A DNA stretch of 64,000 nucleotides from a phage: sequence record PQ478073.1. One strand, 5' to 3'. The position numbers were made by a program, and so were the translations under genes. The notes under the pieces were generated by a model. The model saw nothing but the letters and a program-made list of their open reading frames with translations. It did not search any database and had not been told where the DNA came from. Shown here one piece after another: positions 61,556 through 61,975 of this stretch (within the stretch, counting starts at the first letter, position 1; each line of letters starts with the position of its first letter).

Positions 61556-61975
61556 ATGTTAAATGAACGTATTAAAAATGCACTACATGTATTGAACCAA
61601 GAAGTAAATTCTATTGATAAAAGTACTGACCGTTATAAAGTAATGCATGAAATCAAACAAGAATTGGAATCTATTAATAAGGGAGAATGGTGGTATCTTC
61701 AGCCCGAATATCAAACTCGTGAATTAAACGATGTTGAAAAAGAAATTGTCAAATTCATCACTACTCGTTACTGTGATACATCAGAGAATGAGGTATCAGC
61801 GAACTTCAATCTTACTAAATTGGAAGTCGAAGAAAAATTCAATTTTGATTGGCTTGATTGGATTGAAATGGTCATGGAACTAGAAGAAAAATTCAATGTT
61901 GAAGTTGATGAAAAGTTCGAGAATAATGAAACGAAGCTGTATGAACTAGTAGAACATATTCAAAAAATGTTGTAA
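61556..61975 (+). CDS. acyl-carrier-protein-like protein lacking the conserved Ser (DSLD is DWLD)
   Basis: C-terminal 75 aa parallel ACP (EMVMELEEKFNVEVDE). Confidence 0.5.
   Translation: MLNERIKNALHVLNQEVNSIDKSTDRYKVMHEIKQELESINKGEWWYLQPEYQTRELNDVEKEIVKFITTRYCDTSENEVSANFNLTKLEVEEKFNFDWLDWIEMVMELEEKFNVEVDEKFENNETKLYELVEHIQKML

Follow-up and report, generated by a model that had tools for sequence, protein, structure and literature searches.

Why should a phage keep a protein that is built like an acyl carrier protein (ACP) but carries a tryptophan where the phosphopantetheine-attachment serine belongs? The question is raised by a gene at positions 61556–61975, on the plus strand, of a 64,000-nucleotide stretch of phage DNA (sequence record PQ478073.1; the whole stretch is hereafter called the window). 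The gene begins with an ATG at 61556, is preceded by the Shine-Dalgarno sequence AAGGTGA at 61545–61551, and encodes, up to a stop codon that ends at 61975, a protein of 139 residues with a pI of 4.6 and a net charge of about −15. The first-pass annotation of this DNA had suggested that an ACP-like protein of this kind, unable to be acylated, might serve as a decoy or inhibitor of ACP-dependent host enzymes or as a scaffold, and both ideas are plausible, although unproven.

The 2-kb stretch around the gene is 100% identical to Escherichia phage vB_EcoM_E9.1 and at least 99% identical to about 20 other genomes of 310–385 kb from the PBECO4/121Q/phAPEC6 group, which are Asteriusvirus-type jumbo myoviruses with E. 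coli and Salmonella as hosts. Across about 21 jumbo-phage genomes from these two hosts the protein itself is 97–100% identical. It is gp510 in 121Q and gp313c in phAPEC6, the latter sharing 97.8% identity with the window protein, and it is labelled in databases as “hypothetical protein”, “acyl carrier protein”, “acpP” or “D-alanyl carrier protein”. Part of what concerns this gene is already known: it has been deposited, its family and the adjacency to spanin genes have been mentioned once in print, in a paper on Eneladusvirus (PMC7760394), and cofactor-free ACPs are known from other systems. The papers on phAPEC6, Sharanji and RaK2 and a comparative genomics paper on jumbo phages make no mention of the gene, and in the open-access literature we found neither the missing Ser, nor the variability of the Ser site across the family, nor the N-terminal domain described.

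The resemblance of the C-terminal part to ACPs lies well above chance, as indicated by several comparisons. When the PDB was searched with phmmer, 59 of the 60 chains among the matches listed were acyl carrier proteins, the best match being the ACP of P. falciparum (E 3.3e-4, residues 65–137). Two PHROG families named “acyl carrier protein” were matched at 1.2e-7 and 3.4e-6, and TIGR00517 at an E-value of 1.1e-5. A profile of the phage family reached bona fide ACPs at E 2e-7 among 5.8 billion sequences, and collected 2877 matches at E ≤ 1e-3 from the representatives of a 1.84-billion-protein library. BLASTP against E. coli AcpP gave 15 identities in 31 positions across helix II; with helix II set apart, overall identity to AcpP is about 25%, and loop 1 of the phage protein contains a 5-residue insertion. 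None of the curated ACP cut-offs is reached, the scores being 12.1 vs 20.8 bits for PF00550, 17.9 vs 32 for PF14573 and 25.2 vs 70.45 for TIGR00517. By these comparisons, the window protein is a divergent ACP homologue and not an AcpP orthologue. Family members that possess the Ser score better on the Pfam PP-binding and NCBIfam ACP models, with gp163 of phage CBB reaching 3e-13.

The first-pass annotation had staked its reading on a four-helix ACP fold in structure prediction, and such a fold was obtained. AlphaFold2 run on the single sequence gave an unusable model (pLDDT 48), and the fold was therefore taken from a run with a 67-sequence alignment (pLDDT 87.2), in which the four-helix carrier-protein fold is predicted; because that alignment included canonical ACPs, the prediction depends partly on sequence homology. 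According to this model and the homology searches, the ACP-fold domain occupies residues 57–139 (61724–61972, plus strand). The annotation had put the ACP-like part at the C-terminal 75 residues; the likeness stands, whereas its length is about 81 residues (57–137).

The critical position is Trp99, encoded by a TGG codon at 61850–61852 on the plus strand. In every alignment it is matched to the Ser of the D-S-L motif (FDWLDW vs ADSLDT), just as had been claimed, and the conserved Asp-Ser-Leu motif is absent from the window protein, which has Asp98-Trp99-Leu100 instead. As this Trp is the sole residue aligned to the Ser that receives 4′-phosphopantetheine, the alignment agrees with the earlier statement that the protein cannot be acylated: it should take up no 4′-phosphopantetheine, and therefore carry no acyl group. 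Compared with E. coli AcpP, both proteins are small acidic four-helix bundles, yet the phage protein, having Trp in place of Ser36, is predicted to lack cofactor and acyl carriage. It also differs from AcpP-type ACPs in scoring under every curated family cut-off, in having an extra N-terminal domain of 55 residues and the insertion in loop 1, and in being encoded outside any fab, pks or nrps context.

On the other hand, the “recognition helix” around it is well preserved. Helix II of the phage protein, DWLDWIEMVMELEEKF (residues 98–113; 61847–61894, plus strand), corresponds to DSLDTVELVMALEEEF in AcpP, and D98, D101, E104 and E110 are equivalent to D35, D38, E41 and E47 of the E. coli protein (EcACP), with E111 also present as the counterpart of E48. 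The acidic recognition surface of helix II is thus found in full, including the positions of D35, E41 and E47/48, which form ion-pair contacts with AcpS in EcACP (bioRxiv 10.1101/2025.01.28.635281). Helix II is moreover the most conserved segment of the whole phage family: D98 is present in 100% of members, D101 and E110 in 97% each, E104 and M107 in 92% each, and F113 in 84%.

The protein matches PHROG 18343 over residues 2–139, that is, its full length (E 2.6e-61). Members of the family combine an N-terminal hairpin with an ACP domain, form about 30 clusters at 50% identity and are all 120–155 residues long. Those that can be named come from Asteriusvirus, Alcyoneusvirus (RaK2 and K64-1) and Mimasvirus (CBB), and Serratia phage BF was placed with them by fold and annotation; a scan of IMG/VR with the family alignment returned 121Q, RaK2 and CBB only, all three of which were already known. 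Judged by its named members, the two-domain family is restricted to RaK2-like jumbo phages. Over 137 aligned columns, the viral BFVD entry A0A2Z5HFQ2, of 432 residues, shows 71% identity to the window protein; it probably comes from a related phage in which the gene model was mis-called or fused.

A neighbour-joining tree of 38 family representatives separates into two clades, the window’s (n = 15) and a CBB-like one (n = 23). About two thirds of all representatives retain the Ser, and they are distributed unevenly: it is found in 22 of the 23 CBB-like representatives, and in 5 of the 15 from the window’s clade, where the motif is D-x-L-D-W and the position may be W, S, T, N, R, E, D or K. The codon is TCA in Ser-bearing relatives, ACA (Thr) in RaK2 and AAC (Asn) in Turkey5. 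If Ser was ancestral, it would have been lost at least five to six separate times. Since position 99 varies freely in the window’s clade, Trp itself is unlikely to be an active feature; and since D98, D101, E104 and E110 are 92–100% conserved while the Ser position varies, the docking helix, and not the cofactor, appears to be the selected feature. The two clades are also distinguished elsewhere. In the window’s clade Trp102 is invariant, and an aromatic residue at 121 and Glu122 are conserved, whereas the other clade has a variable residue at 102 and typically D-A-E at 120–122, a pattern that suggests a functional change at the base of the window’s clade. Canonical ACPs hold the acyl chain in a cleft between helices II and III. 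Trp102, the aromatic residue at 121 and Glu122 flank this cleft, which may therefore be filled.

The gene has been kept after the Ser was lost. Its pairwise dN/dS against relatives is 0.17–0.37; this range applies to comparisons between Trp and Ser lineages, and a value of 0.21 was obtained between two Trp-bearing lineages that differ at 27% of their residues. The ACP-like gene is therefore under purifying selection, and a pseudogene or decaying relic is ruled out by the same values. In addition, acyl chemistry finds no counterpart in the surroundings. The annotated 64 kb and the neighbourhoods in relatives contain no lipid- or acyl-handling gene, be it for fatty-acid, polyketide or non-ribosomal peptide synthesis, an acyltransferase, a ligase or a phosphopantetheinyl transferase, and tblastn with E. 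coli AcpS as a query, which matched genuine acpS genes, found no such transferase in RaK2-like phages. Because the docking helix is constant, the attachment residue is variable, no acyl enzymes are encoded nearby and selection is purifying, the ACP fold in this protein probably serves purely as a protein-binding module.

Such a module could address host proteins or phage proteins. Of a decoy for host ACP clients and a phage-protein scaffold, we slightly favour the former, although the mechanism as a whole is held tentatively and at somewhat less than even chances. The protein would be a cytoplasmic, very acidic molecule of two domains, an N-terminal helical hairpin and an ACP four-helix bundle, and would make its contacts through helix II, the surface that is recognised by all ACP client enzymes. 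After transcription from a consensus sigma-70 promoter by host RNA polymerase, it would build up in the infected cell, where the permanently apo ACP mimic would sit in the site at which ACP docks on one or several of its host binding proteins. Candidate targets are PlsB (as for E. coli apo-ACP), AcpS, LpxA/LpxD, enzymes of fatty-acid synthesis, and MukB. Host lipid and envelope synthesis, or some other ACP-dependent process, would then be damped during infection, and the N-terminal hairpin might allow self-association or offer a second binding surface. In its most specific form, in which RaK2-like phages deploy a dedicated “dead” ACP that plugs the docking site of an essential host PlsB, LpxA/LpxD, AcpS or MukBEF, the proposal is rather unlikely.

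The decoy is ranked first, in part, because the conserved residues are those read by host enzymes. A second reason is that obligate apo-ACP by itself suppresses E. coli growth and that apo-ACP inhibits glycerol-3-phosphate acyltransferase. Obligate apo-ACP mutants (E. coli apo-ACP and S. elongatus ACP S39A) are a model for the decoy in that an unmodifiable ACP still folds; they differ in being laboratory-made and of host type, whereas the phage protein is natural, divergent and equipped with an added domain, and its toxicity is a prediction. A third reason is that ACP acts on MukB without the cofactor: the MukB ATPase is stimulated to the same degree by apo-AcpP and by holo-AcpP (PMC8602292). 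AcpP on MukB is thus an instance of ACP function that needs no Ser-linked cofactor, while for the phage protein MukB is a candidate target only. MukBEF is reported to be the target of another phage protein, gp5.9 of T7 (PMC7617805).

A further reason is the host-type promoter in a host-takeover region. By the annotation of E9.1, the surrounding 64 kb form a block of genes on one strand for nucleotide metabolism, RNA repair and host interaction, among them those for RNA ligase, polynucleotide kinase, DNA ligase, Sir2, Nudix, PhoH and anaerobic ribonucleotide reductase. The promoter, at 61483–61511 on the plus strand, agrees with the sigma-70 consensus at 12 of 12 positions (TTGACA, 17 nt, TATAAT), and perfect TTGACA-N17-TATAAT sequences occur twice in the 64-kb window, the second at 10512–10540, against 0.26 expected by chance. 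Early transcription by host RNA polymerase may start from 61483–61511. Two nucleotides after the −10 hexamer, a terminator scan located a terminator-like stem-loop (61513–61536, plus strand), which has a stem of 10 pairs, a T7 run behind it, an RNA folding energy of −13.8 kcal/mol and a z of −4.4. This stem-loop may be an intrinsic terminator for transcripts of the upstream tail gene, and transcripts of the promoter itself could escape termination because they would start within the 5′ arm, about 7 nt past the −10 hexamer, and so lack part of it. In A4, ph0011 and Turkey5 the orthologous gene is likewise preceded by this promoter and stem, and the arrangement resembles the “promoter-early stem-loop” cassettes of T4-type phages.

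Several observations weigh against a decoy. With about 25% identity outside helix II and a 5-residue insertion in loop 1, close mimicry of host AcpP is not evident, and the conservation of helix II could reflect fold stability or a phage partner. As 22 of the 23 CBB-like representatives keep the Ser and are maybe true holo-carriers, the ancestral function could have needed the cofactor. The sole conserved neighbour of the gene is a spanin pair, nothing linked to lipid synthesis, and the conserved N-terminal domain is left unexplained by a simple decoy model. This domain covers residues 1–55 (61556–61720, plus strand), as delimited by the AlphaFold2 model and family conservation. It is predicted to be a helical hairpin, with helices at 4–18 and 23–41 followed by a linker of lower confidence, and its second helix includes Arg26, conserved in 95% of the family, and Tyr27, conserved in 82%. 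A profile of residues 1–55 had no significant match in the PDB or Pfam, yielding noise from designed helical proteins and coiled coils, and an LYR-motif-like reading of the Arg-Tyr pair is accordingly without support.

A conserved extra domain with a near-invariant Arg-Tyr and no relatives elsewhere in the PDB or Pfam is more readily accommodated if the protein serves a phage complex, or a mixed one, as a scaffold or adaptor subunit, an explanation that we regard as possible but doubtful, and only a little less likely than the decoy. The ACP fold would then be a cofactor-independent module for a phage-encoded partner, and the N-terminal hairpin would oligomerise or dock on that partner. Precedents are ACPs embedded in complexes that have no part in fatty-acid synthesis, and the mitochondrial ACP (mACP) of P. 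falciparum. Like the window protein, this naturally occurring ACP homologue has an aromatic residue, Phe113, at the attachment position, and it functions as a cofactor-free binding subunit for Isd11–Nfs1, the F113A exchange weakening the binding to Isd11 (PMC8547962). The window protein likewise has an unmodifiable residue, Trp99, at the Ser position while being under selection. However, the Phe of mACP lies in the interface with a co-evolved partner, whereas the phage position ranges from Trp to Asp and Lys and offers no conserved contact; because of this wide variation within the clade, position 99 is unlikely to be a key contact of the kind that Phe113 is.

Gene order and virion content speak for a scaffold in some phages and against it in others. 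Translational coupling is suggested by an overlap of 4–29 nt between the gene and the one before it in RaK2, CBB and metagenomic relatives; this neighbour, about 190 codons long, is unrelated to the ORFs found upstream in the window’s own lineage. There, the upstream neighbour varies, being either a tail cassette or, in vB_Ec-M-J and ph0011, an RlaP-type nucleotidyltransferase, and a fixed upstream partner is not seen. LC-MS/MS of Eneladusvirus particles had picked up an ACP of this family (PMC7760394), an observation that favours a scaffold over a decoy. Conversely, the orthologue gp313c is missing from the main-text table of virion proteins identified by mass spectrometry in phAPEC6, which does list the adjacent tail fibre gp314c, and we count this absence in favour of the decoy and against a scaffold. 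It was also observed that CBB_164 and CBB_165, at the positions of the spanins, are annotated as “structural protein”, a label that would be surprising for spanins and could stem from membrane carried over into the particle preparation; this annotation bears on the weight to be given to the ACP in Eneladusvirus particles.

The downstream side of the gene is constant and brings a third explanation into consideration, namely a factor associated with lysis that acts with the spanins in timing or licensing the disruption of the envelope, or, as a variant, perturbs the supply of lipid A or phospholipid and so weakens the outer membrane at lysis. After a spacer of 53 nt, the ACP-like gene is followed by an Rz-like i-spanin (62029–62403, plus strand; PHROG 1152 at 6.6e-29) with an N-terminal transmembrane segment, and by an o-spanin lipoprotein (62400–62708, plus strand; PHROG 2425) with the lipobox LIISGC, the start of which overlaps the i-spanin stop (ATGA); the o-spanin orthologue in vB_Ec-M-J is annotated as an Rz-like spanin. 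The order of ACP-like gene, i-spanin and o-spanin is kept, despite the rearranged upstream side, in every relative examined from Asteriusvirus, Alcyoneusvirus, Mimasvirus and metagenomes, and the adjacency has been remarked upon for Eneladusvirus as well (PMC7760394). Because the terminator scan found no terminator between the ACP-like gene and the spanins, they could be co-transcribed. The phages are related, however, and may share the order by simple inheritance. Spanins function in the periplasm, whereas the ACP-like protein has neither a signal peptide nor a membrane segment, and there is no adjacent holin or endolysin. Lipoprotein acylation uses phospholipids as donors, not acyl-ACP. This tells against a lysis role by way of lipoproteins for a protein that, on its alignment, should be unable to carry an acyl group, and the idea that it supplies acyl groups to lipidate the o-spanin was rejected for the same two reasons. 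Overall, a role in lysis is improbable.

We attach a similarly slim chance to the view that the protein is a true carrier in the ancestor and in the Ser-bearing relatives, loaded by host AcpS for phage-directed acyl transfer, with Trp as a tolerated or near-neutral, lineage-specific loss: the Ser of nearly all CBB-like and some of the window’s own clade, the better scores of Ser-bearing members on ACP models and the retained AcpS contact residues are as expected from it, but purifying selection continued once the Ser had gone, the position changed repeatedly while the rest of helix II was held, and neither an acyltransferase, ligase or synthase nearby in the relatives examined nor a phage phosphopantetheinyl transferase was found. 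A tail-fibre chaperone, a candidate prompted by the 929-residue tail protein encoded upstream, was rejected since the gene remains where the tail cassette is absent, as in vB_Ec-M-J and ph0011.

The weak PHROG matches at 1.2e-7 and 3.4e-6 are to PHROG 5934 and 4154, with members in, for example, ViI-like phages and Achromobacter phage Motura, which resemble the window protein in being viral ACP folds and differ in being single-domain proteins of about 80–105 residues, whereas the two-domain arrangement is that of PHROG 18343. ACP is among the most connected proteins of E. coli, and toxic laboratory apo-ACP mutants show that an unmodifiable ACP can jam host metabolism. Should the decoy reading be correct, the phage protein would be the first viral ACP mimic and a new phage route for shutting down host envelope lipid synthesis or chromosome organisation; as a natural inhibitor, it would point to the ACP client most worth blocking, a target that may be of antibacterial interest. 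If it is instead a scaffold, it would join the small set of cofactor-free ACPs, of which the Plasmodium mACP is the clearest case. In either case, the phage family provides a natural series of attachment-site substitutions (W, T, N, R, E, D, K and S) with which the role of helix II can be approached, and, as far as the alignments can tell, the labels “acyl carrier protein”, “acpP” and “D-alanyl carrier protein” should not be retained for the window protein.

Some minor features of the region were also recorded. The spacer between the ACP-like gene and the i-spanin gene contains a 14-nt perfect palindrome, TATACAATTGTATA, at 61979–61992; it is present as a single copy in the window, its near-matches are no commoner than expected by chance, and it is thus not a repeated motif. 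Upstream, 48643–56352 holds two sets of tandem paralogues, the first made up of two proteins of about 900 residues and a fragment-like ORF of 195 residues (PHROG 3573 / 26864), and the second of three ORFs of about 170–190 residues (PHROG 18641 / 7868). The small ORFs that precede the ACP-like gene in RaK2 and CBB resemble the tandem ORFs of the window, with a similarity too weak to call; Pfam returned nothing for either group, and their mutual alignment is weak. Between the RlaP-type nucleotidyltransferase gene and the ACP-like gene, 58154–61481 constitutes a cassette, consisting of a tail-fibre gene (178 residues) and the gene for the 929-residue tail protein, that the window, A4 and Turkey5 possess and that vB_Ec-M-J and ph0011 lack. 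As ph0011 retains the last ~30 nt of the tail gene together with the promoter and hairpin, this remnant suggests that the cassette was deleted there. On the other side of the locus, an HNH endonuclease gene (62710–63321), probably a mobile insertion, follows directly after the o-spanin in Asteriusvirus genomes; Turkey5, RaK2 and CBB lack it there.
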